Positions 4,164 through 53,063 of a stretch of 64,000 nucleotides of DNA are shown in pieces; the stretch's first letter is position 1; each line of letters begins with the position of its first letter. The position numbers and the translations under genes were made by a program. The DNA comes from a virus. Lineage: Duplodnaviria; Heunggongvirae; Uroviricota; Caudoviricetes. The stretch lies in the IMG/VR virus record IMGVR_UViG_3300021060_000024, positions 11,577 through 75,576 of that record; one strand, 5' to 3'. Below the pieces are notes generated by a model. That model had not been told where the DNA came from. It did no database searches and saw nothing but the letters and a program-made list of their open reading frames with translations.

Positions 4164-4931
4164 CTACAGGACGCGACGGAACACGACCTCATCAGTCCAG
4201 AGCTTGCGCTCGCTGACCTCGCTGCCCGTGCGCGGCGCGTCGATGATCTTGCCGTTGCCGACGTAGATCGCGGCGTGGGCGTAGTCGTCGAAGAGCACCA
4301 GGTCGCCGGGGCGCGCCTCGGCGGCCGGGACCCGCGTGCCGAACGTGCGGAGCTGACCGGTGGTGCGCGGGGTGGCCACGCCCGCCGCCTTGCCGTAGAC
4401 GTACTGGATCAGGCCCGAGCAGTCGAAGCCGCGGCTCGGCGTCTCCTCGCCGTAGGCGTAGTCGATGCCGATCTGCTGGCGCGCCAGGGCGAGCACACCC
4501 TCAGCGCGCGAGGCCGCCGGGGCCGCCTGCTCGCGCTGGACGATGTCGCTGGCCTCCTCGGCCGGGGTTGCCACGGGCTGCGCGCGGCCGGGGATCACCA
4601 GGGTCTGGCCCGGGAAGATCAGCGTGCGTGCGCCCAGGCCGTTGGCCGCCAGCATGGCCGAGGTCGAGACCCCGGCGCGCCGCGCGAGCACGCTCACGGT
4701 GTCGCCCGAGCGCACGGTGACGGTGTCGCCGGTCAGGGCCGGCGAACTGGCCGGGCGCGGCGCGGCGCCCGCGGGCGCCTGGGCCATGGCCGGGGTGGCG
4801 AGCATGACCGGCACCACGGCGAGGGCGCCGGTGACGGCCGCGGCGCGGGCGATGTCGGTCTTGTGCAGGGCCAGGGTGTCGAGGACGGGCGTGGCGTCGG
4901 CCACGCGGTGACGGGCTGCGTTCCTGGTCAT
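4164..4931 (-). CDS. secreted LysM + NlpC/P60 peptidoglycan endopeptidase
   Basis: Signal peptide (AAAVTGALAVVPVMLATPAMAQA). LysM (TVTVRSGDTVSVLARRAGVSTSAMLAANGL). NlpC/P60 catalytic Cys (FDCSGLIQYVYG) plus downstream His. Start at the 29th codon of the track ORF, with AGGA upstream. Confidence 0.7.
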   Translation of the reverse strand: MTRNAARHRVADATPVLDTLALHKTDIARAAAVTGALAVVPVMLATPAMAQAPAGAAPRPASSPALTGDTVTVRSGDTVSVLARRAGVSTSAMLAANGLGARTLIFPGQTLVIPGRAQPVATPAEEASDIVQREQAAPAASRAEGVLALARQQIGIDYAYGEETPSRGFDCSGLIQYVYGKAAGVATPRTTGQLRTFGTRVPAAEARPGDLVLFDDYAHAAIYVGNGKIIDAPRTGSEVSERKLWTDEVVFRRVL

Positions 4932-5048
4932 GGTGGCGTCCTGGGTCGCGGGTGGCGTCCGGGGTGCCGGACCAGTCCATGGTGCGGTGTGGTGCGCGCA
5001 TCGGTGGTAGATCACCGGTCGTGCCCACCAGGATCACCCGCGTGGAGC

Positions 5049-5615
5049 ATGCTGTCCACCATGGCCTTCTCTGCGTCGACCGCGGCGCCCGACGACGTCC
5101 AGACGGCGCAGGGCTCCGGACACCTGCTGCACCACCAGCGGCTGCGTGCCGCAGTGCTGGAGCTGCGCAACGCGGGGCTCGCCCTGGAGGGCGACGTGCC
5201 CGAGCTCGCGCGCGATGCCGTCGCCGCGGCCATCCGGGCCACCGGTGGTGCCACGACCTCCAGCGACGACGCCGGTGACACGATCACGATCGACACCTCC
5301 GCGCTGGCCCGTCGCGGCCTGACGCAGAAGCCGATCACGGCCAACTACACCGTCATCGCAGCCGACCTGATCGACACCGTGCTGCACGTCACCGCCAACT
5401 CGGCCATCACGATCACCCTGCCGACGGGGCTGACCACGGAGATCGCGATCCCGTGGCGCCAGTTCGGCCAGGGTCAGGTGACCTTCGTGGCCGCCAGCGG
5501 TGGCTCGCTGCTGGCGCGCGGCGGGGCGAACAAGGCAGCCGGGCAGTACAGCGGGGGTGTGGTCACGGCGATCAACTCCACCGCCTGGCTGCTGGAGGGG
5601 GACATCACCTCGTGA
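5049..5615 (+). CDS. hypothetical protein (188 aa), translationally coupled to the GH6 gene
   Basis: Only the 3' end of track ORF 4161..5615 looks real (MLSTMAFSAS...GDITS). Its stop overlaps the next GTG (GTGA). Confidence 0.4.
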   Translation: MLSTMAFSASTAAPDDVQTAQGSGHLLHHQRLRAAVLELRNAGLALEGDVPELARDAVAAAIRATGGATTSSDDAGDTITIDTSALARRGLTQKPITANYTVIAADLIDTVLHVTANSAITITLPTGLTTEIAIPWRQFGQGQVTFVAASGGSLLARGGANKAAGQYSGGVVTAINSTAWLLEGDITS

Positions 5616-7822
5616 CTGCTCGCGTCTCGCGCCGCGGCGCCATCGGCGCGCTGCGCCGCCTGCTCACCGGCGTGGCCCCCGGCGCTCCGGGCTACCGCAC
5701 GAACTACGTGCCCAACCCCTCCTTCGAGGTCAGCGACGTGCCGGGCTCCCCGGACGGCCAGCGCTACGGCGGGGGCACGTTCTCGCGCGACACCACGGTC
5801 AAGCAGGTCGGCGCCGCCTCCCTCAAGCTCACCGCGACCAGCACCGTGGACTCCGGCCAGTGGGAGTCGATGGCGCTGGGCGCAGGCACCTACACGGCCT
5901 CGGTCTGGATCAAGACCGACAACGTCACGAACGCCTGCATGGTCCTGCGCGACCCGGGCTTCAACGACATCGGCAGCCAGACGCACCTCAGCGGCACCAA
6001 GGACTGGACGCGCTACTCCAACACCTTCACGCTGAGCGCGCCCACCACGGTGCAGATGCTCGTGGGCCTGGGCTCCTACGGCTCGACCAGCGCGGGCACG
6101 GTCTGGTTCGACGGCATGATGATCGAGGCTGGCTCCAACGTCGGCCCCTACTTCGACGGCGGCTACTCCGCGGCGGGCTCGACCGTGGCGTGGAGCGGCG
6201 GCTCCAACGCCTCCCCCTCCACCGAGAAGCGCCAGCCGGCCACGATCGCCACGCAGGCCGCGCTCAGTGCGAGCTCCACCCTCGGGGTCTCCCTGGCGAG
6301 CAGTGGCTCCGGTGCGAGCAACCCGCCGAGCATGTCCAACCTCTACAAGGCCTCGCAGCAGGTGGACAACTACGTCTCGGCCAACCCGAGCCTGTCGGTG
6401 ATCGCCGACCAGCCCCAGGCGCGGTGGATCAACACCCAGGGCGACGCAGACAACATGGGCGGCCTGGTCAGCGCTGCGGGCACCAAGACGCTGCTGATCT
6501 GCATCTACGCCATCCCCGGGCGCGACAACGGCCAGTACAGCGCTGGCGGCTTCCCTGACCGCGCCTCCTACCTGAACTTCCTGCAGACGGTCAAGACCAA
6601 GATCGGCACCAAGTCGGCCTTCATCTTCTTCGAGCCCGACGCGCTGGGCCTGACCAACGGCCTGAGCGCCTCGCTCAAGGCCGAGCGCATCGAGACGCTG
6701 CGCCAGGGCATCGACATCCTGGCCACGATCCCCAACGCCGAGACCTACATCGACGCCTCCAAGTGGATCTCGCCGTCGGACCAGGCCGGGCTGCAGGCCG
6801 CGGTCGACATCGCCAAGGTCTCGGGCATCGTCATGAACGTCTCGGGCTACGACTCCATGGACTCCTGCTACTCCTACGGCGAGGCGGTCCTGTCCGAGCT
6901 GGCCAACCGCGGCATCACCGGCAAGAAGTACATGATCGACTCCGGGCGCAACGGGGTCGGCCCGCTGACCGACGCCGATCGCCCGCTGGCCAACCCCTGG
7001 CTGGACACCTCCCAGGCCTGGTGCAACCCGCCCAAGCGCCGCCTGGGCCCGGTGCCTCAGGTGCCCTCGGGGCGGCCCAACTGCCGTGGCCTGGTGTGGG
7101 TCAAGAACCCCGGCGAGTCCGACGGCACGTTCCCCTCGACGTCGAACTCGACCTACTACGGCGAGAACGCCCCCAGTGCGGGCGCCTTCTGGCTCGTGCA
7201 GGCCAAGATGCTCGCGGGCACCGAGCCCAGTGGCGGCAGCGGCACCCCGGCCAACACCGGCTTCTCCGCTGTGGTGACGACCTTCGACGGCAACTACGGC
7301 GGCCTGAGCGACCGCTCGGCCGGGGTCAGCCTGGTGGGCGGGCGCGCGCGCCTGACCGCGGACACCTCCTACGCCAACATCTCCACGCCGGGCTCGTACA
7401 CGCTCAAGGAGTCCTCGGTCTACGCCCGGCTGTTCCCGCCGTCGGCCAGCGGGGCGACCCAGGCGGCCACGGTGCAGTTCCTGATCCGCTCCACCGCGGC
7501 CGCGGACGGCACCCGCCTGAACGCCGAGGTCAACACCTTCACCGGCAAGCTCACGATCGCCAGCGACTCGGGCTACTACGACGCCAACGCCGTCCAGCTC
7601 ACCTACGACGCCACGGCGCATGCCTTCCTGCGCTGGCGCGAGGCGGGCGGGACGGTCTACCTGGAGACGAGCTCGGACGGCAACAACTGGACCACGCGTC
7701 GCTCGCTGGCCACGCCCTCGTGGCTGACGGCGACCAACAACCAGCTCATGCAGTTCGTGGCCTACAAGGACGCCGGGGCCGCGGCCTACGCCGAGGTCGA
7801 CAACGTCAACACCACCTCCTGA
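5612..7822 (+). CDS. three-domain glycosidase: CBM4/9-like + GH6-like catalytic + ConA/LamG-like domain
   Basis: GH6 motifs LLICIYAIPGRDNG, IFFEPDALGL and LVWVKNPGESDG. N-terminal jelly-roll region (NPSFEVSD...WFDGMMIEAG). GTG start in a GTGA overlap with the upstream stop. Confidence 0.6.
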   Translation: MTARVSRRGAIGALRRLLTGVAPGAPGYRTNYVPNPSFEVSDVPGSPDGQRYGGGTFSRDTTVKQVGAASLKLTATSTVDSGQWESMALGAGTYTASVWIKTDNVTNACMVLRDPGFNDIGSQTHLSGTKDWTRYSNTFTLSAPTTVQMLVGLGSYGSTSAGTVWFDGMMIEAGSNVGPYFDGGYSAAGSTVAWSGGSNASPSTEKRQPATIATQAALSASSTLGVSLASSGSGASNPPSMSNLYKASQQVDNYVSANPSLSVIADQPQARWINTQGDADNMGGLVSAAGTKTLLICIYAIPGRDNGQYSAGGFPDRASYLNFLQTVKTKIGTKSAFIFFEPDALGLTNGLSASLKAERIETLRQGIDILATIPNAETYIDASKWISPSDQAGLQAAVDIAKVSGIVMNVSGYDSMDSCYSYGEAVLSELANRGITGKKYMIDSGRNGVGPLTDADRPLANPWLDTSQAWCNPPKRRLGPVPQVPSGRPNCRGLVWVKNPGESDGTFPSTSNSTYYGENAPSAGAFWLVQAKMLAGTEPSGGSGTPANTGFSAVVTTFDGNYGGLSDRSAGVSLVGGRARLTADTSYANISTPGSYTLKESSVYARLFPPSASGATQAATVQFLIRSTAAADGTRLNAEVNTFTGKLTIASDSGYYDANAVQLTYDATAHAFLRWREAGGTVYLETSSDGNNWTTRRSLATPSWLTATNNQLMQFVAYKDAGAAAYAEVDNVNTTS

Positions 7823-9399: not shown

Positions 9400-9593
9400 C
9401 CACTGGAGGTCAGGTCGGCGCGGTCCCGGAGTGGTACGAGACGCTCCAGGCCGCACGGTACATGAAGGTGCCCCCGTGGGAGTTGGCCGATCAGCCACTC
9501 TTCTGGCAGCGCGCGGCCCTTGCCGCCATGAAGGCTGAGAACGCCGCTCGCAACCGGAAGGACAAGCCCAGTGCCCACGGTCGCCGAGCTTGA
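9043..9593 (+). CDS. tail assembly chaperone GT product via -1 frameshift at G-run 9369-9376
   Basis: The -1 frame is open from the G-run to TGA at 9591-9593. It encodes ...WYETLQAARYMKVPPWELADQPLFWQRAALAAMKAENAARNRKDK. Confidence 0.45.
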
Positions 9594-12500
9594 GATCGAC
9601 CTCGACGCTCGTGACAACGCCACCGCTCAGCTCCTTGCCGTCAACCGGCTGCTGGAGCAGTTCGACGGTCGCGACGCGGACGCCAACCTCGGAGTCGACG
9701 GGGTGGGCCAGGTGCTCGCCGACATCCAGGCCGCCAACCAGGCCGCGCAGAGCTTCGCTGACCAGGATGTCCGCAAGGAGATCGAGGTCGAGAACGAGCG
9801 GGCCCTGCGCGCCCTGGAGCGCGTGCGCGCCGAGGCGGCGACGCTGGCCGACAACAAGATGCGGCTGGAGGTCGAGGTCGCCAACGCCAAGGCGCTGGCT
9901 GACCTGGCCGCCGTCGAGGCCGCCGCCGCGGCCCTGGCCGACCAGGTCAGCATGGACGTCGACATCGACGACGCCGCGGCCATGGCCAAGCTGGCCGGGC
10001 TGCAGCGCGCGGTCAACGCCATCGACGGCAACATCCGCGTGGACGCCGACACCTCCGCAGCGCGCGCGCAGATCGACGCCGTCATCGACTCGATCACGGA
10101 CCGCAAGGCCACCGTGAAGATGCTGGCCGACATCGCCGACGTCGAGCAGAAGGTGGCGCAGGTCGACGCGCTGACCTCGCGGCTGCGCGACCAGGTGGTG
10201 AGGTTCGACGGCGACGACGCGGGCGTGCGCGCCACGGTGGCTGCGGTCGAGGCCATGGTGCGTGACCTCAAGGCCAACGTGATCTTCGAGGGCGACACCA
10301 CCAACGTCGAGCAGGCCGTGGCGCTGGCCAACGGGCTGCTGCAGCAGTACGCCACCCAGCAGGCCGAGGCCAAGCTGGACGCCGACGCCGACGCCGCACG
10401 CGGGGCCATCGCCATGGCCATCGCTGACCTGCAGGCCTTCGACGGCCGAGTGGCCACTGCGCAGATCCGCGCTGACGTGGACGCTGCGGGCATCGCCCAG
10501 GCGCAGGCCCTGCTGGACTCCATCCCCAAGGAGGTCCGCAGCCGCATCACTGCCGACATCGGGGACCTGGTGGCTGGCGTCGCGGCGAGCAAGGCGGCGC
10601 TGGCCAGCCTGCCCGAAGAGATCAACATCCGCGTCGACACGCGCAACCTGTCCGACCTGGCCGACAAGGCGCGCTACGCCGGTGGCCAGATCGGCGTGCT
10701 CGGCATCGCCGTGTCCGGCCTGGGGGCGGCGCTGATCCCGCTGGGTGCGGTGGCTGTCGGCTCCGTCGGCGCGCTGGGCGCCGCCTTCACCGTCGCGGGC
10801 GGCGCGGCCACGGTCTTCGGCTTCGCGGCCGTCTCGGCCCTGGGTCCGGTGGCCGACGCCGTCGAGCAGATCCGTCAGGGCGAGCAGCAGTACAAGGAGG
10901 CCGTCACCGACCCGGCCAAGGAGGCCGCCCTCCTCAAGATCCAGATGGCCTACAACGCGCTCAGCACCGAGCAGCGCGCCGCGGTCGAGGGCGTGCTGGC
11001 CTACCAGAACGCCTGGCAGGGCCTGGTCACCAGCATCCAGCCGCAGATCTTCCAGGCCACGGCCACGGTGCTGCAGACGCTCACCAGCCTGTTCCAGCAG
11101 ATGAGTCCTGCGATCACCGGCGTGGCGAACGAGGTCGTCTCCCTGGCGAACAGCGCCGCGGCGGCTCTGGGCAACCCGGTCTGGCAGACCTTCATCAACA
11201 ACATGAACAACCTGGCCGGCCCCGTCTTCGGTGCGCTCGTGCGCGGCCTGGGCAACGTGGTCACCGGGATCATCGGCCTGGTCAACGCCTTCACCCCGAT
11301 GTCGGTCGGCTTCGTGCAGGGCTTCGAGCAGATGACGGCCGCCTTCGCGACCTGGTCGGCCGGGCTGGCCAACAACACCGGCTTCCAGAACTTCATCAAC
11401 TACATCCAGCAGAACATGCCGCGGGTGCGCGAGTTCATCGCTGACGCCGTGCAGGCCATCGTCGACTTCGTCCAGGCGACCGCACCGCTGGGCTCGACGG
11501 TGCTGGACGCGGTCAACCGGGTGCTGGAGGCGTTCAGTCGCCTGCAGGAGGTCAACCCTCAGCTCGCCGCCGTCGTGGCCTCGGTCGCGCTGCTGACCCC
11601 GGCAGTGCTGGGCGTCGCGGGCGCCGTGGCGCCGGTCATCTCCCTGTTCATCACCATGGCGGGCGCGGCCGGCGAGCTCGGCGGCGCGCTCGGCATCGCC
11701 GCGGGCGGCTTCACCGGCACGACCACCTCGGCCTCGGGCTTCGCCGGGGTCATGACCACGGTCGGCACCGCGGTGCGTACCGCGGGCGGGCTGCTGCAGT
11801 CGACGCTGGGCATCCTGACCCTGTTCGGTGGCGGCTTCATCACGGCCATCGCCGAGAGCCAGCGCTTCCGCGACACGATCGTGGACGGCTTCCAGTCGAT
11901 CGGCACGGCCTTCTCCGGCCTGGGCACGGCCTTCGCGGGCCTGTTCAGCGCGCTGGGCGAGATGGTCGGCGCCTTCAACGACGTGTCCGAGGCCGTGGTG
12001 ACCCTGGGCGGCTCCTGGGGTCAGTTCTTCGGGCCCATGGTCACCATCGCTGCGGAGTCGGCCTCGGCCGTGATCGAGATCCTCACCTCGATCGTGGAGG
12101 CCTTCTCCAACGTCTTCTCGGGCCTGGCCGCTGCGGCCAACCGGGACTGGCAGGGCGTGTGGGACGCGCTCAACGACGACGCGCCGCGCCAGGCCATCGA
12201 CCGCGCGCTGCAGAACGTCAAGAACGTGCTCAAGGCGCCCAGCCAGGACTACAGCGAGTACGGCAAGCGCTCGATGGACGAGGTCGGCCAGGGCTTCGAC
12301 GCGGGCGCAGGCCTGGTGGGCGGGCAGATGCCCAACCACGCCTCGATGCTCGCGCAGGCCTTCGGCTCCAACCTCACCGGCTTCGACACCGCGGGCCAGC
12401 AGGCCATGACCGCCGTCGGCACCGGCGCGGCCGCGGGCGTGCCCGGAGCCATCGCACCCTTCACCGGCCTGGGCACCCAGGCCAGCGGTGCTCTGACGGG

Positions 12501-15306
12501 CCTGGCGGCCATCGGCCAGCCCGCGGGTGCGCAGGCCATGGCCGGGGTCGGGGCGGGCGCGAGCCAGTCCGTGCCCCAGGCGCTGGCCCCCTTCGAGCAG
12601 CTCCAGCCCGGCATCCAGCAGGCCGTGGCCAACGTGGCCACCTCCACGCTGGCCGCGGGCACGGACGCCATGGGCAACTTCTCGGCCGGGGCGATCCAGA
12701 ACTTCACGGCCGCCATGGCCCCCTTCGAGCAGCTCCAGCCCGGCATCACCGCGGCCACGCTGAACGCGGCGCTGGCGGCGACTCCCGGTGGCCAGCGCGC
12801 CATGGCGGGCTTCGGCGAGGGCGCGCAGGCGAACATCGCCAGCGCCCTGACCCCCTTCCAGCAGCTCAACCCCCAGCTCGCCGCGGTCGTCATGGCCACG
12901 GTGGACTCCATCGCGCCCATGGGCGGGGCGACGATGGTCAGCTTCGGCGCCGAGGCGCAGGCCAACCTGGCCGCCGCGCTGGCGCCCTACGAGGCCATCG
13001 CCCCGGGGATCACCGCGGCGCTGACCAACGCGATCGTGGCCAACACTGAGCAGGGCCGCCTGGGCATGGAGGCCTACGGCCAGGGCGTGGCCTCGGGCGC
13101 GCCCGCGGTCACCGGTGCCGTGCAGCAGGTCACCACGCAGGCTCAGGCCGCGCTCGACGCGGGCAACGCCATGTACAACCCCTCGGGGGCCAAGGGCGCC
13201 GCAGAGTACAACGCGGGGCTGGCCTCGGGCGCGGCGGGTGCGGGGGCTGCAGCGGCGACCGTCACCACCGCGGTGCAGGGCGCCCTGGACTCCGGCTCGG
13301 CCATGTACAACCCCTCGGGCGCCAAGGGCGCCGCGGAGTACAATGCGGGCCTGACCACCGGTGGCGCCGGTGCCCACGCTGCGGCCATCTCGGTGACCGA
13401 CCAGGCGCGCATGGGCTTCATCGCTGGCGGCACCCTGACCGCTGAGGGCCTGGCCTCGGGCACGAGCTACGGCACCGGCATGACCGGCGCCAGTGGCGCA
13501 GTGAGTGCGGCGGCGGCGACGCTGCCCGCGGCGGCGCGCACCTCCTTCGGTGGCGGCGGCGACTTCACCCCTGAGGGTGCGCAGATCCCGACCAGCATGG
13601 CTGCGGGCATCAGCGCGGGCGTGGCCTCGGTGCAGGGCGCCATGATGCTGATCTCCAACGCCATCAGCGCGCAGATCGTGAACGCCCAGCTCCAGGGCAC
13701 CGACATGGGCACGCGCTTCTCGAACTCGCTGACCACGTCGCTGACGGGCGCGAGCACCGCAGTGCAGGGCTCGATGATGCTCATCACCAACGCCATGAGC
13801 GCCGGGGCGATCCAGGCCAGCACCGCTGGCACTGCGGTGGGGCAGAACTTCACCCAGGGCCTGACCACGAGCCTGACTGGCGCTGCCACCGCGGTGCAGG
13901 GCTCGATGATGATGATCACCAACGCGATGTCGGCTGGGGCGGTCCAGGCCTCGGTCGCGGGCACCGCGGTGGGTACCAACTTCACCCAGGGCCTGACCAC
14001 GAGCCTGACCGGCGCGGCCACCGCGGTGCAGGGCTCGATGATGATGGTGACCAACGCCATGAGTGCCGCGGCGGTTCCCGCCTCGGTCGCGGGCACGGCC
14101 ATCGGCACCAACTTCACCACCGGGCTCACCACGGGCCTGACGGCGGCCACGACCGCCACGACCACCGCCATGGCCTCGATCACCGCGGCCATGCAGACCG
14201 GCCTGGCTGGGGCGCAGGCGGCCGTGACGGCCGCCATGGCGGCGATGACGGCGGCCTTCACCACCGGCTTCACCGGCATGACCACCGCGGCCACCACGGC
14301 CATGGCGGCCATCGGCACGGCGATCACCGCGGGGCTGGCCACGGCGCAGGCGGCCGTGGCAGCGGCAGTCGCTGCCATGACGGCGGTCTTCACCACCGGC
14401 TTCGCGGCCATGCAGGCGGCGGTCACCGCGGCCATCACGGCCATCGGTGCCGCGATCACCGCAGGCATGGCGGCGGCCACCGCGGCTGTGACGGCGGCCG
14501 TGACGGCCATGCAGACCGCCTTCACCGCGGGCTTCACCGCGATCACCGCCGCGGTGACGCAGTCGATCACGGCGATCGTCCAGGCGATCACCCAGGGCAT
14601 GACCACCGCCCTGCAGGCCGTGACCACCAGCGTGCAGGCGATGGTGCAGGCCTTCACCAGCGGCTTCGCCCAGGCGCAGGCCGCGGTGCAGTCGGCCGTG
14701 GCGGGCATGGTGGCCGCGATCCAGTCGGGCATGAACCAGGCGCTCGCGGCGGTCAACAGCTTCGTGAACGCGGCCGTGGCGGCTCTGAACGGCATGGGCG
14801 CGCGCTTCCGGGCCGCGGGCGCGGCCGCAGGTGCAGACCTGGCCGCGGGCCTGCAGTCCCAGGTCGGTGCAGTCCAGGCCGCCTCGGCGGCGCTGGCGGC
14901 CGCGGCGGCCGCGCCGATGCCGGGCTCCCCGGCCAAGGTCGGGCCGCTGTCGGGCAACGGCTGGACGCGCATCCGTGGTGAGCACTTCGGTGAGGATCTG
15001 ACCGCGGGCCTGCTCTCCCAGGTGCGCGACGTGCGCGGGGCCTCGGGCGCGCTGGCCAGTGCGGCCAGCCGCGCGCTGGGCTCGGACATCGCTGGCGGCC
15101 TGTCGCTGTCGGGCTCGGGCTCGCTGGGCACGGCCAAGACGCTCTCGGGCTCGCTGTCGGGCAGCCGTGGTGGGATCACGATCAACGTGAGCGCCGACGC
15201 GGTCAAGGTGACCACGACCGGCGACGCCGCCAAGGCTGACTTCCGTGACGCGGGCAACGAGCTGGCGCACATCCTGAACGCCGCGCTCCGGCGCCGGACC
15301 TCGTGA
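9571..15306 (+). CDS. tape measure protein (1911 aa)
   Basis: Coiled-coil N-terminal region, transmembrane segments (GIAVSGLGAALIPLGAVAVGSVGALGAAF) and long Ala/Thr/Gly tandem repeats. Position after G/GT. Confidence 0.8.
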   Translation: MPTVAELEIDLDARDNATAQLLAVNRLLEQFDGRDADANLGVDGVGQVLADIQAANQAAQSFADQDVRKEIEVENERALRALERVRAEAATLADNKMRLEVEVANAKALADLAAVEAAAAALADQVSMDVDIDDAAAMAKLAGLQRAVNAIDGNIRVDADTSAARAQIDAVIDSITDRKATVKMLADIADVEQKVAQVDALTSRLRDQVVRFDGDDAGVRATVAAVEAMVRDLKANVIFEGDTTNVEQAVALANGLLQQYATQQAEAKLDADADAARGAIAMAIADLQAFDGRVATAQIRADVDAAGIAQAQALLDSIPKEVRSRITADIGDLVAGVAASKAALASLPEEINIRVDTRNLSDLADKARYAGGQIGVLGIAVSGLGAALIPLGAVAVGSVGALGAAFTVAGGAATVFGFAAVSALGPVADAVEQIRQGEQQYKEAVTDPAKEAALLKIQMAYNALSTEQRAAVEGVLAYQNAWQGLVTSIQPQIFQATATVLQTLTSLFQQMSPAITGVANEVVSLANSAAAALGNPVWQTFINNMNNLAGPVFGALVRGLGNVVTGIIGLVNAFTPMSVGFVQGFEQMTAAFATWSAGLANNTGFQNFINYIQQNMPRVREFIADAVQAIVDFVQATAPLGSTVLDAVNRVLEAFSRLQEVNPQLAAVVASVALLTPAVLGVAGAVAPVISLFITMAGAAGELGGALGIAAGGFTGTTTSASGFAGVMTTVGTAVRTAGGLLQSTLGILTLFGGGFITAIAESQRFRDTIVDGFQSIGTAFSGLGTAFAGLFSALGEMVGAFNDVSEAVVTLGGSWGQFFGPMVTIAAESASAVIEILTSIVEAFSNVFSGLAAAANRDWQGVWDALNDDAPRQAIDRALQNVKNVLKAPSQDYSEYGKRSMDEVGQGFDAGAGLVGGQMPNHASMLAQAFGSNLTGFDTAGQQAMTAVGTGAAAGVPGAIAPFTGLGTQASGALTGLAAIGQPAGAQAMAGVGAGASQSVPQALAPFEQLQPGIQQAVANVATSTLAAGTDAMGNFSAGAIQNFTAAMAPFEQLQPGITAATLNAALAATPGGQRAMAGFGEGAQANIASALTPFQQLNPQLAAVVMATVDSIAPMGGATMVSFGAEAQANLAAALAPYEAIAPGITAALTNAIVANTEQGRLGMEAYGQGVASGAPAVTGAVQQVTTQAQAALDAGNAMYNPSGAKGAAEYNAGLASGAAGAGAAAATVTTAVQGALDSGSAMYNPSGAKGAAEYNAGLTTGGAGAHAAAISVTDQARMGFIAGGTLTAEGLASGTSYGTGMTGASGAVSAAAATLPAAARTSFGGGGDFTPEGAQIPTSMAAGISAGVASVQGAMMLISNAISAQIVNAQLQGTDMGTRFSNSLTTSLTGASTAVQGSMMLITNAMSAGAIQASTAGTAVGQNFTQGLTTSLTGAATAVQGSMMMITNAMSAGAVQASVAGTAVGTNFTQGLTTSLTGAATAVQGSMMMVTNAMSAAAVPASVAGTAIGTNFTTGLTTGLTAATTATTTAMASITAAMQTGLAGAQAAVTAAMAAMTAAFTTGFTGMTTAATTAMAAIGTAITAGLATAQAAVAAAVAAMTAVFTTGFAAMQAAVTAAITAIGAAITAGMAAATAAVTAAVTAMQTAFTAGFTAITAAVTQSITAIVQAITQGMTTALQAVTTSVQAMVQAFTSGFAQAQAAVQSAVAGMVAAIQSGMNQALAAVNSFVNAAVAALNGMGARFRAAGAAAGADLAAGLQSQVGAVQAASAALAAAAAAPMPGSPAKVGPLSGNGWTRIRGEHFGEDLTAGLLSQVRDVRGASGALASAASRALGSDIAGGLSLSGSGSLGTAKTLSGSLSGSRGGITINVSADAVKVTTTGDAAKADFRDAGNELAHILNAALRRRTS
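13720..14115 (+). repeat. three tandem ~132-nt coding repeats inside the tape measure gene
   Basis: Repeated peptide LTTSLTGA(A/S)TAVQGSMM(L/M)(I/V)TNAMSAGA(V/I)QAS(V/T)AGTAVG(T/Q)NFTQG. A looser AAMTAAFTTGF... array follows to about 14700. Confidence 0.5.
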
Positions 15307-18349: not shown

Positions 18350-19437
18350 GCCTGTGGCCCACCTCGGCGGCCTTCAACACCGCGCTGGCCTCCGACCGGC
18401 GCCGCTGGTTCACCCAGGTCGAGATCATGCAGCAGAACCAGGTGCTGGCCACGCTGAACACCGTCGCGGACGGCTCGGTCACCCTGGCCGAGACCTCCAC
18501 GCGGCGCACCTGCGACCTGACGCTGGTGGACCCCAGCGGCACGCTGACCCCTACCTCGGCGCGGGACCTGCTGGCCCCGCTGCAGTCGGAGGTGCGCATC
18601 AGCCGCGGCCTGCGCCTGGCCGGGGGCGCGGTGGAGTACGTGCCGCTGGGCACCTTCGGGGTCATCGACCCCACGGTGGACTCCCTGGACGGCGCGGTGC
18701 TGATCCAGCTCAGCGGCGCCGACCGCTCCGACGCCGTGGCCTCGCGCCGCTTCGCCGAGCCCTGGACGGTCAAGGCGGGCACGCCCACCCACCAGGCGAT
18801 CATCGACATCGTCCGCTCGCGCCTGAACGTGCCGGTGCGCGTGACCGTCACCGGCTCCACGGTGCCCGAGACCGTCTTCGAGGACCTGACCAGCCCGTGG
18901 GACGCGGTGCAGAAGATCGCCGAGGCGGACGGGCTGACGGCCTACTTCGACCAGCTCGGCACGCTGGTGGTGGCGCGGGATGAGGAGGTGCCGACGGGGA
19001 TCTCCTACAACCCCGGCCCGGACAGCTTCATGCTGGAGGCCGGGCGCTCGATGTCGGCCGACACCACCTACTCGGGGGTGGTCGTCTCGGGCCAGCACCC
19101 CGACAACACCCCGGTGCGCGTGGTCGCCTGGGACAACGACCCCAAGAGCCCGACCTACTACCAGGGCCCCTTCGGGGCTCGCCCGTTCGGGTTCAACTCC
19201 CCCCTCATCACCAGTGCCGCCATGGCGAACGCTGCGGCGGCTACCCTGTTGCGCAGAGTGACCAAGATGCGACAGAAGGTGACTGTGCGCACTGTGGGGC
19301 ACCCCGGGCACGACATCGGGGACGTCATCCACGTCGAGCACCCCCTGAGCCGCATCAACGGGAACTACGTCATCACCGGTGCGCGCATCCCGCTGCGCAT
19401 CGGCTCGATCTCACTGACGGCGCTGGAGGCGGCATGA
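18346..19437 (+). CDS. minor tail protein (Tal/hub-like, 363 aa)
   Basis: GTGA overlap with the upstream gene. Size and position fit a gp27-like N-terminal tail tip protein. Confidence 0.45.
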   Translation: MSLWPTSAAFNTALASDRRRWFTQVEIMQQNQVLATLNTVADGSVTLAETSTRRTCDLTLVDPSGTLTPTSARDLLAPLQSEVRISRGLRLAGGAVEYVPLGTFGVIDPTVDSLDGAVLIQLSGADRSDAVASRRFAEPWTVKAGTPTHQAIIDIVRSRLNVPVRVTVTGSTVPETVFEDLTSPWDAVQKIAEADGLTAYFDQLGTLVVARDEEVPTGISYNPGPDSFMLEAGRSMSADTTYSGVVVSGQHPDNTPVRVVAWDNDPKSPTYYQGPFGARPFGFNSPLITSAAMANAAAATLLRRVTKMRQKVTVRTVGHPGHDIGDVIHVEHPLSRINGNYVITGARIPLRIGSISLTALEAA

Positions 19438-20195
19438 CGACGGAGGCAGCAGGCCCTACGCCCGCCGCCTCCTTCGACTCCACTACCTCGGCCGCGGACG
19501 ACTTCGTCGAGCGCATCCTGGCCAACACCGTCACCGGGGCTGAGCTGCGCGTGGCGCTGGTGACCGAGACCGAGAACTCCGGCGACTACCGCGTGAAGAC
19601 CTCGGCCACGGGCTCCTCCTTCTGGTGCGCCAGCCTGGACGCCAGCCTGCGGGTGGGCGACCGCGTGCTGATGCTCAAGCAGGAGAGCGCCTTCGTGGTC
19701 GTGGGCCGGCTGTCGGGGGGCGGCTCCACCGTGCCGATCGGGGTCGTGAACCCCTACGCGGGCGGGGTGGTCCCCAACGGCTGGCTGGTCTGCGACGGCT
19801 CGGCCGTCTCGCGCAGCGACTACGCCGCGCTGTTCGCCGTCATCGGCACGAGCTACGGCGGCGGCAACGGCTCGACCACCTTCAACATCCCCAACCTCGT
19901 GAACCGCTTCGCCCTCGGCGCGGGCTCGCGCCAGCGCGGCGCCACCGGCGGCGCCGAGAGCGTGACGCTGTCCCAGGCCCAGATGCCCAGCCACAACCAC
20001 TACCTGGACTCGGGCACCACCGGCACCGAGCCTGGCGGCACCGCCACGGTGCAGGCCGGCTCGGGAGCCACGGTCGCGGGCCTGGCCCGCCACAGCCACC
20101 AGGTCACGGCCAACACCGACTCCCGAGGCTCGGGCCAGGCCCACGAGAACATGCCCCCCTTCCAGGTGCTCCCCTACATCATCAAGGCGCGGTGA
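19434..20195 (+). CDS. tail fibre protein with phage tail-collar domain
   Basis: Collar signature NGWLVCDGSAVSRSDYAALFAVIGTSYGGGNGSTTFNIPNL...MPSHNHY. ATGA overlap with the upstream gene. Confidence 0.65.
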   Translation: MTTEAAGPTPAASFDSTTSAADDFVERILANTVTGAELRVALVTETENSGDYRVKTSATGSSFWCASLDASLRVGDRVLMLKQESAFVVVGRLSGGGSTVPIGVVNPYAGGVVPNGWLVCDGSAVSRSDYAALFAVIGTSYGGGNGSTTFNIPNLVNRFALGAGSRQRGATGGAESVTLSQAQMPSHNHYLDSGTTGTEPGGTATVQAGSGATVAGLARHSHQVTANTDSRGSGQAHENMPPFQVLPYIIKAR

Positions 20196-21215: not shown

Positions 21216-21392
21216 GTGAGCGAGCTCGACGCCACCTACACCCACCCCACCGGCGAGCACATCGACTGGAGCGCCTGGCCCGAGCCTGACGCCGCCGACG
21301 GTGACGGCTCGGAGTTCGGCGAGCGCCTGGGCGATGGCCCCGGCGCGGTGACCGACACCACCGTGGCCGCCACCCAGCGTCTGGAGTCCTGA
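21216..21392 (+). CDS. small acidic protein (58 aa)
   Basis: GTG start. Its stop overlaps the LysA ATG. Confidence 0.3.
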   Translation: MSELDATYTHPTGEHIDWSAWPEPDAADGDGSEFGERLGDGPGAVTDTTVAATQRLES

Positions 21393-22414
21393 TGGCCCTG
21401 AACCTCGATCAGGTCGTGCAGCGCGCGATCCCCTCCCCGAACTACTCCAGCCGCGGCGGCAAGGACGTGCGCCTGCTGCTGCTGCACACCGCCGAGGGCA
21501 GCCGGACCAACGCCTCCCTGGGCTCCTGGTTCGGGCGCAAGTCCACCAAGGCCTCCAGCCACGTCGGGATCGACGCCGACAGCGTGGTGCGCTTCGTGCC
21601 CGAGGCCTACTCGGCCTGGACCGCGCGCTCGGCCAACCCCGTGGCCTCCCAGGCCGAGCTCTGCGCCTGGGCCAAGTGGAAGGGCGCCGAGTGGGGCGCC
21701 CAGGACTCGATGCTGGAGAACGCCGCCCGCTGGCTGGCGGCCGCGGCGCGCTACCACGACATCCCCCTGGTGCGCCTGCGCGACGCCCAAACCAAGTCCG
21801 GGCGCGGCGTGGCCATGCACGTCGACATCACGCGCGGCTGGCGCGAGGGCTCCCACGCCGACTGCGGCCAGTGGTTCGCCGACCACCTCATGGACTCCGT
21901 GATCGAGCGCGCTCGGGTACTGGCTGGCGGCGCGGGCAGCCCCGTGGTCGTGCCCGCGGTGCCGGTCCCGATGCCCGCAGGCCGCGGCCCCTACGGGCTG
22001 CCGGTGCTGCGCTGCGACGGGGCCGAGTCCGGCTGGGCCTGGCTGATGCAGGAGGCGCTCATCCGCGCCGGGCACGCGCTCAGCCGCGACGGCAGGCCCG
22101 GAGCCCAGACCGACCGCGAGCTGCGCAAGTACCAGGCTGCGCGCGGGCTGGCCGTGGACGCGGTCTGCGGCGGCTGGACGTGGGCCTCCTTCATCAAGGA
22201 CGCGGGCGACCCGCTGCGCCAGGGCATGGCCAAGGGCCACCCCGGCGTCGAGGTGCTGCAGAACTTCCTCGGCATGCGCGGCGCCGACCTGGACCGCGAC
22301 TTCGGCGGCGGCACCGCGGCGCGCCTGCGGGCGGTGCAGTCCTGGGGCGACCTGAGCCCCGACGCGGTGGTCGGCTCCGACACCCGCACCCTGCTCGCGA
22401 CGCGGGCCTACTGA
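21392..22414 (+). CDS. endolysin: N-acetylmuramoyl-L-alanine amidase + two PG_binding_1 domains
   Basis: Amidase_2 motifs VRLLLLHTAEGS and SHADCGQW. Two peptidoglycan-binding repeats (DRELRKYQAARGLAVDAVCGGWTW and GVEVLQNFLGMRGADLDRDFGGGTAARLRAVQ). Confidence 0.8.
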   Translation: MALNLDQVVQRAIPSPNYSSRGGKDVRLLLLHTAEGSRTNASLGSWFGRKSTKASSHVGIDADSVVRFVPEAYSAWTARSANPVASQAELCAWAKWKGAEWGAQDSMLENAARWLAAAARYHDIPLVRLRDAQTKSGRGVAMHVDITRGWREGSHADCGQWFADHLMDSVIERARVLAGGAGSPVVVPAVPVPMPAGRGPYGLPVLRCDGAESGWAWLMQEALIRAGHALSRDGRPGAQTDRELRKYQAARGLAVDAVCGGWTWASFIKDAGDPLRQGMAKGHPGVEVLQNFLGMRGADLDRDFGGGTAARLRAVQSWGDLSPDAVVGSDTRTLLATRAY

Positions 22415-22424: not shown

Positions 22425-22670
22425 ATGAGCACCGACGACCCCAAGACCATCCCGACCCCGGTCAGCCCCAAGGTCTACTCCAGCACCGGCGCGGGTGCGG
22501 CGCTGCTGGCCCTGGGCTTCATCCTGCGCTACTACGGCCTGGACGTGCCCGACGCCGTCATCGGGGCCGTGGCCGTGATCGGCACGTTCGCCGCGGGCTA
22601 CATCACCCCCGACCGCCTGCGCGAGATCGGGGCCGTCTTCCAGCGCGGCCGCGGCGAGCACCGCGCGTGA
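22425..22670 (+). CDS. holin (2 TM, 81 aa)
   Basis: Helices GAGAALLALGFILRYYG and AVIGAVAVIGTFAAGYI. Lies immediately after the endolysin. Confidence 0.6.
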   Translation: MSTDDPKTIPTPVSPKVYSSTGAGAALLALGFILRYYGLDVPDAVIGAVAVIGTFAAGYITPDRLREIGAVFQRGRGEHRA

Positions 22671-22975
22671 TCACCCTGCTGGGTCAGCCTGCCGAGTGGA
22701 TGGATCGCGCAGCCTGCGCGGACCTGCGCACGAACATGTTCCCCTCGGTGCGCGACCCGGCAGGGCAGGCCGCGGCCAAGGCCGTCTGCAGGGGCTGCCC
22801 GGTGGAGGCCGAGTGTCGTGAGCTCGGCCTGGGCCAGGACAAGCAGGGCCGCGCCGAGGAGCGCTGGGGGGTCTGGGGCGGCCAGAACGGACCCCAGCGC
22901 GGGCGCACCGCGGCACGCCGCGCGAAGCACCCCACGAGGCGTTCCAAGATCATGCCCCCCACCCCCGAGGCATAA
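22667..22975 (+). CDS. WhiB-family [4Fe-4S] transcription factor
   Basis: Four Cys in AACADL...AVCRGCPVEAECRELGL, plus GVWGG and a basic tail. GTGA overlap with the holin. Confidence 0.7.
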   Translation: MITLLGQPAEWMDRAACADLRTNMFPSVRDPAGQAAAKAVCRGCPVEAECRELGLGQDKQGRAEERWGVWGGQNGPQRGRTAARRAKHPTRRSKIMPPTPEA

Positions 22976-22976
22976 C

Positions 22977-23070
22977 CGCAGGTCAGAGCGTTCTGGGGGG
23001 CACGGGGGCAGGGGCGTACACCCTCTGTCGCGCGCGTATGCAGGGGAAAGGGTGTAAACCCGTGCCCCCT
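22977..23070. repeat. structured ~94-bp element R1 (second copy at 46658..46752)
   Basis: 82-bp core is identical to 46658-46739 except for one C/T. Nested hairpins GGGGGCACGGG / CCCGTGCCCCC and GTACACCCT / AGGGTGTAA. Confidence 0.55.
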
Positions 23071-23140
23071 CGCCCCCTCAACCACTGCTTGAGGGTTGCG
23101 AGTCCACCACCCCGACGGCCTCCAGATCTACGCTCTGGCC

Positions 23141-24505
23141 ATGGGCCGACACGCCACCACCCCTCGTCCGCGAGGTCGTCTGCGCTCGCGTCACTGGGGC
23201 GTCCTGATCGGCACCCTGGCCGTGGTCGGCCTGGGTGCCACCGCAGGCCTGGCTGCCACCGGCGGCCTGCCCGGGGTGCGCTCGACGTCGGAGACTCCGG
23301 CCGCGGGCGGCAAGTACGTCACCACCGTCGAGGACGGCAAGCTCACCCGGCTGGAGTTCGTCCCGGACGGGTCCACCGCGGCCCCCAGCGCCACGCTGAG
23401 CCCCTCGGCCACGGCCACCGGCACTCCGAGTGCTTCGGCCTCCGCAAGCGCCTCAGCGTCCAGCGCAGCCCCCTCGGCGACCACCGCCGCCTCGGCGGCC
23501 CCGACCGGCAAGCCCCCGGCGGCCACGTCTGCGGCCCCCAGCGCCACGCAGAGCCCCTCGCGCAGCGCCAGCAGCACTCCGGCACCCCCGGCCACCTCCA
23601 GCCCCGCAGCGACGACCACAGCCCCTCCCGCCGTGGGCGCGGGCGACTGGCTCTCGGGCGTGGCCGGGACCGGCGACACCGACGGGCGCTTCGGCACCTG
23701 GCGCGGCACGCCGGTGGAGATCGTGGGCACCTGGGCCGACGCCGACGAGGCCAACCAGCGCCGCATCTACACCGTCACCGGCGGCTCGGGGCGCTTCGCC
23801 GGCCCGATCGACGTCGGGGTCGGCGCCCTGGTGCGCGGGGAGACCTGGGCCGCCGCGGCGCGCGGGGCCAACGACGCCCGCTGGCGGGAGTCCCTGACGG
23901 TGATGCGCGACGCGCGCGCGGGCAAGGGCACCACCTACATCCGCTTCGCCCACGAGATGAACGGCAACTGGTACCCCTGGGCCGTCAACGCCTCCAACCG
24001 GGCCGACTTCATCACCGCCTGGAAGCGCTACCGCGCGCTGCAGCGGGAGATCTTCCCCCAGGCCAAGCTCGTGTTCAGCGTCAACCGCGAGTCCGTGGGC
24101 TCGGGCATCGACTGGCGCACCACGTTCCCCGGGCCCGGCCAGGTCGACGTCATGAGCGTGGACTACTACAACTTCGCCGGGGTTTCCACGGCCGCGGAGT
24201 GGCGCAGCGAGATCGAGCGCACCGACCGCTTCGGGGCCCCGATCGGCCTGGAGCAGCACCGGCGCTTCGCGGCCTCGGTGGGCCTGCCGCTGGCGATCTC
24301 GGAGTGGTCCGGGCGCGCCTCCGAGGGCGATGACCCGGAGTTCATGACCCAGATGAACGCCTTCTTGCGCACCAACGGCGGCTCGGGGCCGGGCCAGATG
24401 CTCTACGAGATCGTCTTCAACATCGGCGGCTACGAGGGCAACTACCAGCTCTTCCCCACCACCAGCCAGCCCGCGGCCGCGGCACGCTACCGCGATGTCT
24501 TCTGA
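23141..24505 (+). CDS. membrane-anchored/secreted GH26-like glycoside hydrolase with Ser/Thr/Ala/Pro linker
   Basis: Signal anchor (VLIGTLAVVGLGATAGLAATG), low-complexity linker, YIRFAHEMNGNWYPW (GH26 acid motif) and LPLAISEWSG (nucleophile-like motif). Confidence 0.55.
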   Translation: MGRHATTPRPRGRLRSRHWGVLIGTLAVVGLGATAGLAATGGLPGVRSTSETPAAGGKYVTTVEDGKLTRLEFVPDGSTAAPSATLSPSATATGTPSASASASASASSAAPSATTAASAAPTGKPPAATSAAPSATQSPSRSASSTPAPPATSSPAATTTAPPAVGAGDWLSGVAGTGDTDGRFGTWRGTPVEIVGTWADADEANQRRIYTVTGGSGRFAGPIDVGVGALVRGETWAAAARGANDARWRESLTVMRDARAGKGTTYIRFAHEMNGNWYPWAVNASNRADFITAWKRYRALQREIFPQAKLVFSVNRESVGSGIDWRTTFPGPGQVDVMSVDYYNFAGVSTAAEWRSEIERTDRFGAPIGLEQHRRFAASVGLPLAISEWSGRASEGDDPEFMTQMNAFLRTNGGSGPGQMLYEIVFNIGGYEGNYQLFPTTSQPAAAARYRDVF

Positions 24506-24680
24506 GTCCTGCCCCACGCCGTTCAAGGCGGTCTACCCGACCAAGTTCGCCGCGCGGCGCGCGATCCAGAGCGCGCGCCACCGCGGCCCGGCCGCGGGCC
24601 AGGCGGGCAAGGTCGCGCCGTATGAGTGCGAGTGCGGGCACTGGCACGTCGGGCACCGCAAGGAGCGCCCGCGGCGGTAG
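24495..24680 (+). CDS. small zinc-ribbon-like protein (61 aa)
   Basis: YECECGHWHVGH motif. Overlaps the 3' end of the GH26 gene. Confidence 0.3.
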   Translation: MSSESCPTPFKAVYPTKFAARRAIQSARHRGPAAGQAGKVAPYECECGHWHVGHRKERPRR

Positions 24681-26051: not shown

Positions 26052-26537
26052 TCAGCCCCCCAGGTGCAGCACGTTGAGCATCGGCGCGACCTGGCCGCCG
26101 TGGGTGGCCTCGACGCTGGAGTTGAACCAGAAGGCTGCCGCCAGCCCCGAGCCCTTGAGCAGGCGCTGGCACCCCGGACAGGGCGCGTCGGTGATGGCCA
26201 TCCACCCGCCGCGGCGCCGGACGGGGTCGGAGTACATGATCGCGTTCTCCTCGGCATGGATGGCCACGCAGGGGTGGGCCACGCCGGGGCCGGTGTAGGC
26301 GCTGTCGGGCGCGAGGTCGGCGTGGGTCATCGACCCCCGCGGGCAGCCGGCCGCGGTCAGGCAGCCCGGCGCCTCGGGGGGTGCGCCGTTGTAGCCCACC
26401 GAGAGCACCCGGCGGTCCGCGTCCAGCACGACGGCGCCGACCCTGCGGCGGGTGCAGTCCGCGCGCATCGCCACGGCCGTGGCGATGCCGATGGCCCACT
26501 GCTCCCAGGAGGGCCGACTCGGCGTCTGGACGATCAT
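26052..26537 (-). CDS. dCMP/cytidine deaminase-family zinc enzyme
   Basis: HAEENAI plus PCPGCQRL zinc-binding motifs. Start MIVQTPS at codon 48 of the track ORF. Confidence 0.7.
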   Translation of the reverse strand: MIVQTPSRPSWEQWAIGIATAVAMRADCTRRRVGAVVLDADRRVLSVGYNGAPPEAPGCLTAAGCPRGSMTHADLAPDSAYTGPGVAHPCVAIHAEENAIMYSDPVRRRGGWMAITDAPCPGCQRLLKGSGLAAAFWFNSSVEATHGGQVAPMLNVLHLGG

Positions 26538-26719
26538 GCGCCCGTCACCGTCAGGTAGCCGACGAAGCTGGCGACGGCCACGCCGACGACGGCGAGCGCG
26601 AGCAGCTCCCAGCCACCCAGGCGACGCCAGGCCAGGACGGCCTGCGCCGCAACCAGCAGGAAGCAGACCACCAGGCACCAGCCCCAGACGATGGCCAGTG
26701 CGCCACCTGTCGCGATCAC
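26534..26719 (-). CDS. small membrane protein (2 TM, 61 aa)
   Basis: GTG start in a GTGA overlap with the JAB stop. Its stop is in an ATGA overlap with the deaminase start. Confidence 0.35.
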   Translation of the reverse strand: MIATGGALAIVWGWCLVVCFLLVAAQAVLAWRRLGGWELLALAVVGVAVASFVGYLTVTGA

Positions 26720-44172: not shown

Positions 44173-44378
44173 GGGGCACTCGTCCTCTCGATGGTGATCT
44201 TGAACTTGGTCTGGTGCTGGTCGCCCAGCCCGGTCAGCGTCATGTCGACGTTGGCGACGTTGGCCCCACGGGTGCGCATCACGGCGCTGGCGAAGACGCA
44301 CAGCTCGTCGTCGTACTCCCCGTCCGCCGAGGCCACGAAGTGCTCCGCAGCCTCGGCAGCCGTGATGGGGATGGTCAC
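44169..44378 (-). CDS. hypothetical protein (69 aa)
   Basis: GTGA-coupled to the lipoprotein gene. Confidence 0.3.
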   Translation of the reverse strand: MTIPITAAEAAEHFVASADGEYDDELCVFASAVMRTRGANVANVDMTLTGLGDQHQTKFKITIERTSAP

Positions 44379-46578: not shown

Positions 46579-46657
46579 GTTCGCAGCATACATGGGGGGG
46601 CACAGGGGGCACAGCCCGGCCCAGAACTTTCTGTGCCCCCCAGCGAAATGGCATCGT

Positions 46658-52258: not shown

Positions 52259-52288
52259 CAGGGGCCTCCGAGCGGTGGTGGTGGGCTT

Positions 52289-53059: not shown

Positions 53060-53063
53060 GGGG

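Follow-up and report, generated by a model that had tools for sequence, protein, structure and literature searches.

Glycanases that act on a surface polymer from outside the cytoplasm are familiar from cellular systems: PslG (glycoside hydrolase (GH) family 39, a clan GH-A barrel) and BcsZ (GH8) are extracytoplasmic, are encoded with a polysaccharide synthesis system and cleave its product. Among phage proteins, Bacillus phage PghP, a poly-γ-glutamate hydrolase, is a free non-virion enzyme that clears an outer layer. Mycobacteriophage LysB is also non-virion, is linked to lysis and clears the outer layer (PMC6116114). In Actinoplanes missouriensis, the Wzx/Wzy cluster wps-1 holds a GH26 enzyme, WpsE, whose deletion gave a mild sporangium defect; according to the same 2026 paper, no Wzx/Wzy cluster involving GH26 has been characterised (PMC13390465). 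Beside another Wzx/Wzy cluster of Actinoplanes, the secreted GH5 enzymes GimA and GimB dissolve its matrix polysaccharide and free the spores (PMC12691653). Here we describe a GH26 gene in a 64,000-nt stretch of a Caudoviricetes genome (IMG/VR record IMGVR_UViG_3300021060_000024, positions 11,577 to 75,576), the whole of which is referred to below as the window.

The window protein resembles these systems only in part. GimA and GimB share clan GH-A with it, and the release of spores from a matrix parallels that of virions; PslG, BcsZ, GimA and GimB differ from it in belonging to other GH families, in being cellular genes and in having tested activity. WpsE is an analogous case, likened by description and not by sequence. 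LysB and PghP are similar in lying near lysis genes or acting as free enzymes, in being outside the virion and in helping progeny to escape or reach cells, but they are an esterase and a peptidase rather than glycoside hydrolases, lack an export signal and exit by holin or lysis.

The gene is a further member of a known enzyme family with a cellular-type architecture, and GH26 in soil viromes has already been reported. Less ordinary features, as read from the sequence, would be its exported, non-virion form near lysis genes, its pairing with GH6 and its tie to uncharacterised GH26-bearing polysaccharide clusters. Sequence comparison and a predicted structure indicate that its product is almost certainly an exported GH26-family retaining glycanase. 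That this glycanase is a Sec-exported, membrane-tethered depolymerase of host surface polysaccharide, which would aid release or destroy the receptor, is in our view somewhat better than an even prospect.

Fold and active site of the catalytic domain

Family GH26 enzymes work by double displacement with two catalytic glutamates, on strands 4 and 7 (PMC10470212). When the window protein was compared with the PDB by phmmer, the best match was CtLic26A (E 4e-13), the GH26 module of C. thermocellum endoglucanase H, a β-1,3-1,4-glucanase (PDB 2bv9, 2cip, 2v3g, 2vi0). A profile built from a 74-sequence alignment gave the same ranking, with a best E of 9e-13. An AlphaFold2 (AF2) model built on this alignment showed strands alternating with helices over residues 168-454, with pLDDT above 90. 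Foldseek comparison of the model with the PDB again placed CtLic26A first (2vi0/2cip/2bv9; E 4e-14, target TM 0.75), followed by GH26 β-1,3- and mixed-linkage xylanases and mannanases at about 1e-7 and then by other clan GH-A barrels; ranks 1-13 were all GH26 barrels, and the first non-GH26 entry, heparanase, appeared at rank 14. Pfam's own GH26 model scored 16.6 bits, below its gathering cut-off of 20.2, and for this reason the family assignment rests on the PDB, fold and homologue evidence. The 175 database homologues reach E values as low as 1e-193, and most of them carry PF02156. No PHROGs family matched the protein, and the NCBIfam search returned only low-complexity noise derived from the linker. 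With phmmer, the profile and AF2 plus Foldseek in agreement, the GH26 (clan GH-A) fold proposed in the initial annotation is well founded.

The sequence HEMNGNWYPW starts at residue 271, within the motif span YIRFAHEMNGNWYPW (residues 266-280), and AISEWSG occupies residues 385-391. Counted by hand on the phmmer alignment, H271-E272 pair with H108-E109 of CtLic26A, and E388 with E222. We take E109 and E222 to be the acid/base and nucleophile of CtLic26A, an assignment reportedly due to Taylor et al. (2005). In the AF2 model a strand spanning residues 265-269 ends just before the HE pair, and E388 lies within the strand 384-390. No variation was seen at H271, E272, N274, W280, E388 or W389 across the 74 aligned sequences. 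Both catalytic glutamates are thus in place, as had been read from the two motifs.

A further part of the same reading, that the enzyme is mannanase-type, found no support: the lichenase CtLic26A is closest, and GH26 mannanases were matched by phmmer only at E 3e-4 to 0.2. The gap amounts to some nine orders of magnitude in the sequence search and seven in the fold search. Likeness to CtLic26A extends to the acid/base motif, HE(A/M)NG(D/N)WYPW, and to the nucleophile Glu on strand 7, whereas the N-terminal third of the window protein's barrel is unaligned by sequence and CtLic26A is a cellulosomal plant-glucan enzyme of a Firmicute, so that its substrate is not transferable. At about 20% identity to any characterised enzyme, CtLic26A included, substrate specificity is not readable by homology.

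The reading frame itself proved genuine, running from ATG 23141 to a stop codon at 24503-24505. Its GC content at the three codon positions is 0.64/0.64/0.94, and at third positions reaches 0.98-1.0 over the catalytic half; real genes in the window, which has a GC content of 71%, share this type of pattern. An identical protein is present on ENA metagenome contig ERZ27250785 k141_661892 (75,580 bp). ATG 23141 was kept as the start because a full-length homologue with 66% identity (P0001) begins at the equivalent position (MARHTSRPTPRGRMRSRHWGVLIG in the alignment). An in-frame TTG at 23096, which would add 15 residues, was rejected: it is not conserved in P0001, and GAGGG abuts the codon. A soluble isoform, modelled on the internal start of a second homologue (P0002), was likewise discarded, the contig of P0002 being merely truncated.

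Predicted export segment and linker

Ahead of the catalytic domain, a transmembrane or signal anchor followed by a Ser/Thr/Ala/Pro linker had been described, and this description is supported. Residues 1-18 contain six Arg and zero acidic residues, the hydrophobic stretch within residues 19-41 is 21-23 residues long (Kyte-Doolittle 2.0 over 19 residues), and Ala, Ser, Pro and Thr account for 79 of the 87 linker residues. Hydropathy and the positive-inside charge pattern fit a predicted extracytoplasmic catalytic domain. The N-terminal segment may be a signal anchor (type II) or a Sec signal, either cleaved, for which ATA or LAA are candidate sites, or uncleaved. Two other routes were considered and set aside: the protein has zero Cys, which excludes a lipoprotein, and it lacks the RR pair of Tat export.

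Between the hydrophobic segment and the linker, AF2 predicts strands at residues 47-54, 57-64 and 67-75 with pLDDT of about 80-85, a unit matched among the homologues only by P0001, the protein of a sister phage. Residues 1-80 are better conserved between the two phages than the catalytic domain (76% versus 70% identity), which suggests that the export module matters to the phage. A hydrophobic N-terminal segment is found in 60 of 68 full-length homologues and a lipobox in two, and many have a similar linker; the shared segments and lipoboxes point to an extracytoplasmic family. The DNA encoding the linker holds a 95-nt internal duplication (23378-23472 and 23531-23625; direct repeat D12).

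Cellular homologues and their polysaccharide clusters

The catalytic domain is 50-57% identical to actinobacterial and other proteins, namely from the Geodermatophilaceae (Geodermatophilus, Blastococcus, Modestobacter, Trujillonella, Goekera), the Kineosporiales (Kineococcus, Quadrisphaera), Frondihabitans, Nakamurella, some Saccharimonadia and myxobacteria. Clusters were inspected in Geodermatophilus nigrescens, Blastococcus sp. HT6-30, Kineococcus aurantiacus and a metagenome contig. There GH26 often occurs as two tandem paralogues, and its neighbours are genes for a Bac_transf priming transferase, GT2 and GT4 glycosyltransferases, RmlA/B/C-like dTDP-sugar enzymes, Wzy, Wzz, a Wzx-type flippase and an acyltransferase or deacetylase. 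No sugar-uptake or mannan-utilisation genes were seen in the inspected cellular contexts.

To put a number on this association, twelve marker proteins from the inspected loci were compared by tblastn with 72 genome loci, using a 10-kb radius. At least two markers lay within 10 kb in 47 of the 72 loci, and at least three in 42. Against the small share of a genome, a few percent, that Wzx/Wzy-type clusters take up, this is a large enrichment. The cluster enzymes of Geodermatophilus nigrescens (P0016), Blastococcus (P0009) and Kineococcus (P0031, malectin-GH26) align with the window protein over the whole catalytic domain at the identities given above and share its order of signal, anchor or lipobox, low-complexity linker and GH26. 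They differ in being encoded in chromosomal clusters, frequently by paralogous genes in tandem; malectin, B_lectin or F5/8-C modules occur in some of them, whereas the window protein has its unique three-strand unit instead and a phage location. The activities of the cluster enzymes are only predicted. The host glycan target suggested in the initial annotation gains real support from these homologues, although the window copy itself stands in a phage genome and not inside a polysaccharide biosynthesis cluster.

The same contexts bear on a different explanation, in which the gene is an auxiliary metabolic gene whose product, an extra secreted mannanase or glucanase, digests plant or algal β-glycans for the host or the post-lysis community. 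Polymers of plants or algae are the substrates of the characterised GH26 enzymes, which comprise β-mannanases, β-1,3-xylanases, mixed-linkage xylanases and a lichenase (PMC10470212), and the phage also has GH6, a cellulase family. Yet the inspected contexts lack foraging genes and most of the counted loci are polysaccharide-synthesis clusters, and a tethered enzyme with a short infection period is a poor fit to foraging. We regard the auxiliary explanation as unlikely.

Proposed action on the host surface

For a depolymerase of host surface polysaccharide, we infer its export and orientation, what it would cut, when it would be made and how the phage would profit, as follows. The phage would have captured the gene from a host or a mobile element; its product would be synthesised in the infected cell and would not form part of the virion. 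Host Sec would export the protein from the infected cell, and the N-terminal segment would tether it at the outward side of the membrane, or it would be freed upon cleavage. The 87-residue flexible linker would allow the catalytic domain to reach through the wall. There it would work as a retaining β-glycanase, by double displacement with E272 as acid/base and E388 as nucleophile. The substrate would be a Wzx/Wzy-made, β-linked surface heteropolysaccharide of the actinobacterial host, proposed because the cellular homologues sit in clusters making such polymers. Cutting this polysaccharide would free progeny from the matrix; receptor removal, alone or together with matrix release, would prevent progeny from being lost on infected cells and debris.

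Several observations weigh against this proposal. None of the six myxobacterial loci has polysaccharide markers, and the context count as a whole draws its markers from three of the counted genomes, includes some loci that are tandem paralogues and stands without a random-locus control. A simple neighbour-joining tree, without support values, places the phage pair with three homologues outside polysaccharide clusters: P0003 is next to ParA, P0072 is on a TraG/type IV secretion system (T4SS) element, and P0008 is chromosomal, by rpsB-tsf. Identity is nearly equal for the cluster-borne homologues and this group (55-57% versus 52-62%). At the N-terminus AF2 confidence is low, and the topology comes from hydropathy and composition. 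The host is resolved only to the level of an actinophage, and the surface polymer in that host is putative. Finally, a WhiB gene and two hairpins separate the GH26 gene from the lysis genes, and its start has no recognisable Shine-Dalgarno sequence.

The contexts of P0003 and P0072 hint that the gene may travel on mobile elements. A Logan contig (SRR29694043; L017) carries a GH26 gene of the phage subclade at 10001-11371, on an element with a TraG/TrwB-type coupling protein, which suggests that genes of this subclade may also travel on conjugative elements. Such relatives are what might be expected of a cargo (moron) gene, expressed by a prophage or in chronic carriage, that remodels host exopolysaccharide, with biofilm dispersal, an altered surface or the exclusion of other phages for which the polymer is the receptor as its effect. 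The retained cellular architecture of anchor, linker and GH26 fits this explanation as well, and so does the location of the gene: morons typically lie where it does, last in the late operon and preceded by hairpins, and TACGCT could be its own -10 element. However, the open reading frames (ORFs) of at least 300 aa in the 64-kb window showed neither an integrase nor a recognisable immunity gene, the 11.5 kb outside it lie between structural genes, the contig is circular as for a free phage, and a consensus promoter scan found nothing. As far as can be seen, the gene is not prophage cargo, and we hold a moron role to be distinctly unlikely.

GH26 domains and other glycanases in phages

A tblastn search of GenBank phages (INPHARED) gave no match at E 1e-5 when the full protein was the query; with the catalytic domain alone, at E 10, it gave only a weak match to Caudovirales GX15bay. 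BFVD held no viral entry with a GH26 fold, its best match being a GH5.

Two IMG/VR contigs carry the domain, with both motifs, in a different setting. In one (L005), at 34% identity, it makes up the C-terminal end of a 1243-aa protein that also contains a BppL_N lower-baseplate domain; in the other (L004), at 39% identity, it is the C-terminus of a 660-aa protein whose gene sits between a major head gene and an endolysin-like gene. It is therefore probable, judging from these fusions, that phages have also recruited the GH26 lineage as a virion enzyme, which points to a host-surface substrate. The fusion to a baseplate-type protein speaks against an auxiliary metabolic role. It also raises the question of whether the window protein is itself virion-associated, a tailspike-like tail enzyme drilling through the host capsule at entry. 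This we consider very unlikely: an export signal and a disordered linker precede the domain in place of a tail-attachment domain, no PHROG matches, a Sec-exported protein would be excluded from capsids assembled in the cytoplasm, and the gene, downstream of the lysis genes and of WhiB, is not part of the tail module.

A more plausible virion-type glycanase of this phage is the 847-aa GH6-containing protein of the structural module, the presence of which had also been noted in the initial annotation and was confirmed by Pfam (Table 1). The GH6 domain comprises residues 358-623 and matches M. tuberculosis CelA1/Cel6 best in the PDB (E 7e-36); the C-terminal 170 residues of the protein match phrog_14065, and translation probably begins internally, near residue 115. 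In the GenBank phage set, only Streptomyces phage Gilgamesh and one faecal contig showed a GH6-like domain (about 30% identity). Adjoining the GH6 gene, and inside the plus-strand structural module, is a gene for an NlpC/P60 endopeptidase with LysM (4164-5033, minus strand).

GX15bay (MK557849; L092), deposited as a 'complete phage genome', has two tandem GH26 genes at 5071-7518, annotated as endoglucanase and mannanase and Pfam-positive at E 1.7e-10 and 1.6e-13. This soil phage is uncultured, its host is predicted to be actinobacterial, and it comes from a study of mangrove soil viromes by Jin et al. (2019) in which 'Mannanase (GH26)' is listed as a viral auxiliary CAZyme (carbohydrate-active enzyme) with Actinobacteria as predicted host (PMC6460857). 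Both the listing and the Pfam-positive pair favour an auxiliary metabolic gene. GX15bay differs from the window phage in that the match to the window protein is weak and partial (34% over 120 residues), and in that its GH26 genes sit among glycosyltransferase genes and were read as carbon-cycling without tests. Their flanks hold GT2, rhamnosyltransferase and methyltransferase genes, a layout that resembles a polysaccharide cluster more than a carbon-foraging module and so argues against the auxiliary explanation. Taken with the cellular contexts, this makes the window gene probably not a plant-mannan auxiliary gene.

The phage genome and the GH26 locus

The circular 75.6-kb contig on which the GH26 gene lies also has terminase, portal, tail, endolysin, holin and primase genes, as expected of a genuine viral genome. 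The end of k141_661892 falls at about 26372, inside a dCMP deaminase gene (26052-26678, minus strand) that is intact in the window; the genome is for this reason taken to be circular or circularly permuted, with the window as a 64-kb section of it in rotated order. About 11.5 kb lie outside the window; they separate the portal gene, which extends from 62425 to the window end, from the window start and the other structural genes.

A sister phage was found in Logan SRR30758802 as two contigs, L091 and L001, which overlap by 13 nt inside a hairpin like R1, the repeated hairpin element of the window (Table 1). L091 carries tail genes, the endolysin (76% identical), holin and WhiB, and L001 carries GH26 (66% identical), a small ORF and later ThyX and dCMP deaminase. 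Because the sister phage keeps the order endolysin, holin, WhiB, hairpin, GH26, the gene is a stable syntenic part of this phage lineage. When 20 kb of the window served as a megablast query, no cultured relative of the phage was matched; in IMG/VR, an endolysin query found no sister phage and a primase query only one distant, uninformative contig. The terminase shares about 50% identity with its counterparts in Streptomyces, Gordonia and Arthrobacter phages, a result that indicates no more than an actinophage, the endolysin homologues are all metagenome proteins, and a tRNA search found none.

Table 1. Features of the GH26 gene, its surroundings and the GH6 gene (positions in the window)
Feature	Position	Strand	Basis or remark
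GH26 gene	23141-24505, including stop	+	454 aa; ORF listing
Predicted export signal: residues 1-18 Arg-rich n-region, 19-41 hydrophobic (WGVLIGTLAVVGLGATAGLAATG)	23141-23263	+	hydropathy, composition
Three-strand β unit, residues 47-75 (KYVTTVEDGKLTRLEFVPDG)	23279-23365	+	AF2; phage proteins only
Disordered Ala/Ser/Pro/Thr linker, residues 81-167	23381-23641	+	composition, pLDDT <50
GH26 catalytic (β/α)8 domain, residues 168-454	23642-24502	+	AF2 pLDDT >90; Foldseek; phmmer
E272 codon, predicted catalytic acid/base (HE motif directly after strand 4)	23954-23956	+	aligns with E109 of CtLic26A
E388 codon, predicted catalytic nucleophile (in strand 7)	24302-24304	+	aligns with E222 of CtLic26A
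GH6-containing reading frame, 847 aa, structural module	5279-7822	+	Pfam GH6 E 6e-38
Tail collar protein; tail module ends at 20195	19434-20195	+	then small membrane proteins
Endolysin, amidase with peptidoglycan-binding domain	21392-22414	+	Pfam Amidase_2 and PG_binding_1; PHROG
Holin-like gene, 81 aa	22425-22670	+	PHROG holin
WhiB-like regulator	22667-22975	+	Pfam WhiB; PHROG
R1 repeated hairpin element, 124 nt, copy 1 (WhiB-GH26 interval)	22953-23076	+	repeat D8
R1 copy 2	46634-46757	+	divergent intergenic region
Small hairpin CCCTCAA-N7-TTGAGGG, then TT	23075-23097	+	sequence; longer stem in L001
TACGCT hexamer, 6 nt before ATG	23129-23134	+	conserved in sister phage
61-aa Cys/His ORF overlapping GH26 stop by 11 nt	24495-24680	+	ORF listing

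The gene had been placed just past the lysis cassette. It does lie downstream of endolysin and holin, but the WhiB gene and two hairpins intervene. This proximity is what favours a second cell-wall lysin, or 'exolysin', cutting peptidoglycan or a wall-linked glycan and needed for lysis. Exported phage lysins that bear signals are known (PMC7143992), and LysB (reviewed in PMC6116114) offers an analogy, which is our own. The activities listed for GH26 include none on peptidoglycan (PMC10470212), however, and the phage already has a peptidoglycan-binding amidase endolysin and the NlpC/P60-LysM protein, whereas the GH26 protein has no wall-binding domain. As nothing ties GH26 to peptidoglycan, the exolysin-type function put forward in the initial annotation is hardly credible.

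The gap between WhiB and GH26 is 165 nt and contains part of R1, the small hairpin and TACGCT. The two copies of R1, the only ones in the window, align over 94 nt at 96.8% identity and form a long hairpin (z = -5.1); no Rfam family matched, and no exact copy was found in IMG/VR. Copy 2 comes just before a weakly HNH-like ORF (46751-47209) and is itself followed by TTGACC-N18-TATCAT. The small hairpin may be the late-operon terminator. A terminator scan returned a sole terminator-like site inside the 3' end of the GH26 gene, with an unconvincing T-tract. In the sister phage, TACGCT is followed by a 46-nt leader with GGAGAGGG. Since no Shine-Dalgarno sequence could be recognised ahead of the GH26 ATG and TACGCT lies 6 nt before it, a leaderless transcript from the gene's own promoter is possible.

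Downstream, the 61-aa ORF is probably co-translated with GH26, given the overlap. It contains a C-x-C-G-H-W-H-x-G-H motif and matches phrog_16009 (E 5e-9) and phrog_3424, both of unknown function, and the sister contig L001 has a 62-aa gene at the same place. Past this ORF the strand switches to early/replication genes, including those for dCMP deaminase and a primase-helicase.

Elsewhere in the window, a 73-nt repeat (GGGTAGAACGTTACGGGG ... GTGACCTGCGTCACA) occurs seven times at 52280-58094, spaced by 445-1691 nt, between minus-strand early genes; it has a palindromic end and the appearance of a promoter or operator unit that is reiterated. The early region also encodes, on the minus strand, an SPFH/Band-7 protein (43309-44751), a C-5 cytosine DNA methylase (54081-55403) and a DUF7178 protein (56398-57174). 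Several families of direct repeats with a 132-nt period (D3, D4, D9, D10) occupy 12588-14354 of the tape-measure gene (9532-15306; 1925 aa).

Implications

A wider version of the proposal would assign a task to each of the two glycanases: the structural-module GH6 would open a β-glucan layer at entry, and the Sec-exported, tethered GH26, captured from a host Wzx/Wzy cluster, would strip the polymer of the infected cell from the inside out. We put this two-enzyme strategy forward as a doubtful extension. If it were true, GH26 would be a holin-independent receptor-destroying or release enzyme and would represent a new class of lysis-associated accessory in phages of Gram-positive bacteria. The substrate of GH26-bearing Wzx/Wzy clusters in Actinobacteria would also become open to experiment for the first time, and the conjugative-element relatives would point to a general role in moving DNA across a polysaccharide layer.

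The narrower proposal of an exported depolymerase has consequences of its own. Few non-virion enzymes are listed as clearing layers beyond peptidoglycan, and an exported glycanase would join them; if the inference holds, the stand-alone enzyme could be used to probe or degrade the surface polysaccharide of Actinobacteria of the Geodermatophilaceae and Kineosporiales type. It is routine to count the viral CAZymes of soil viromes as auxiliary genes of carbon cycling (PMC6460857); the genomic setting of the homologues speaks for the host's own envelope as the target of at least this GH26 lineage, which would alter the meaning of such counts.

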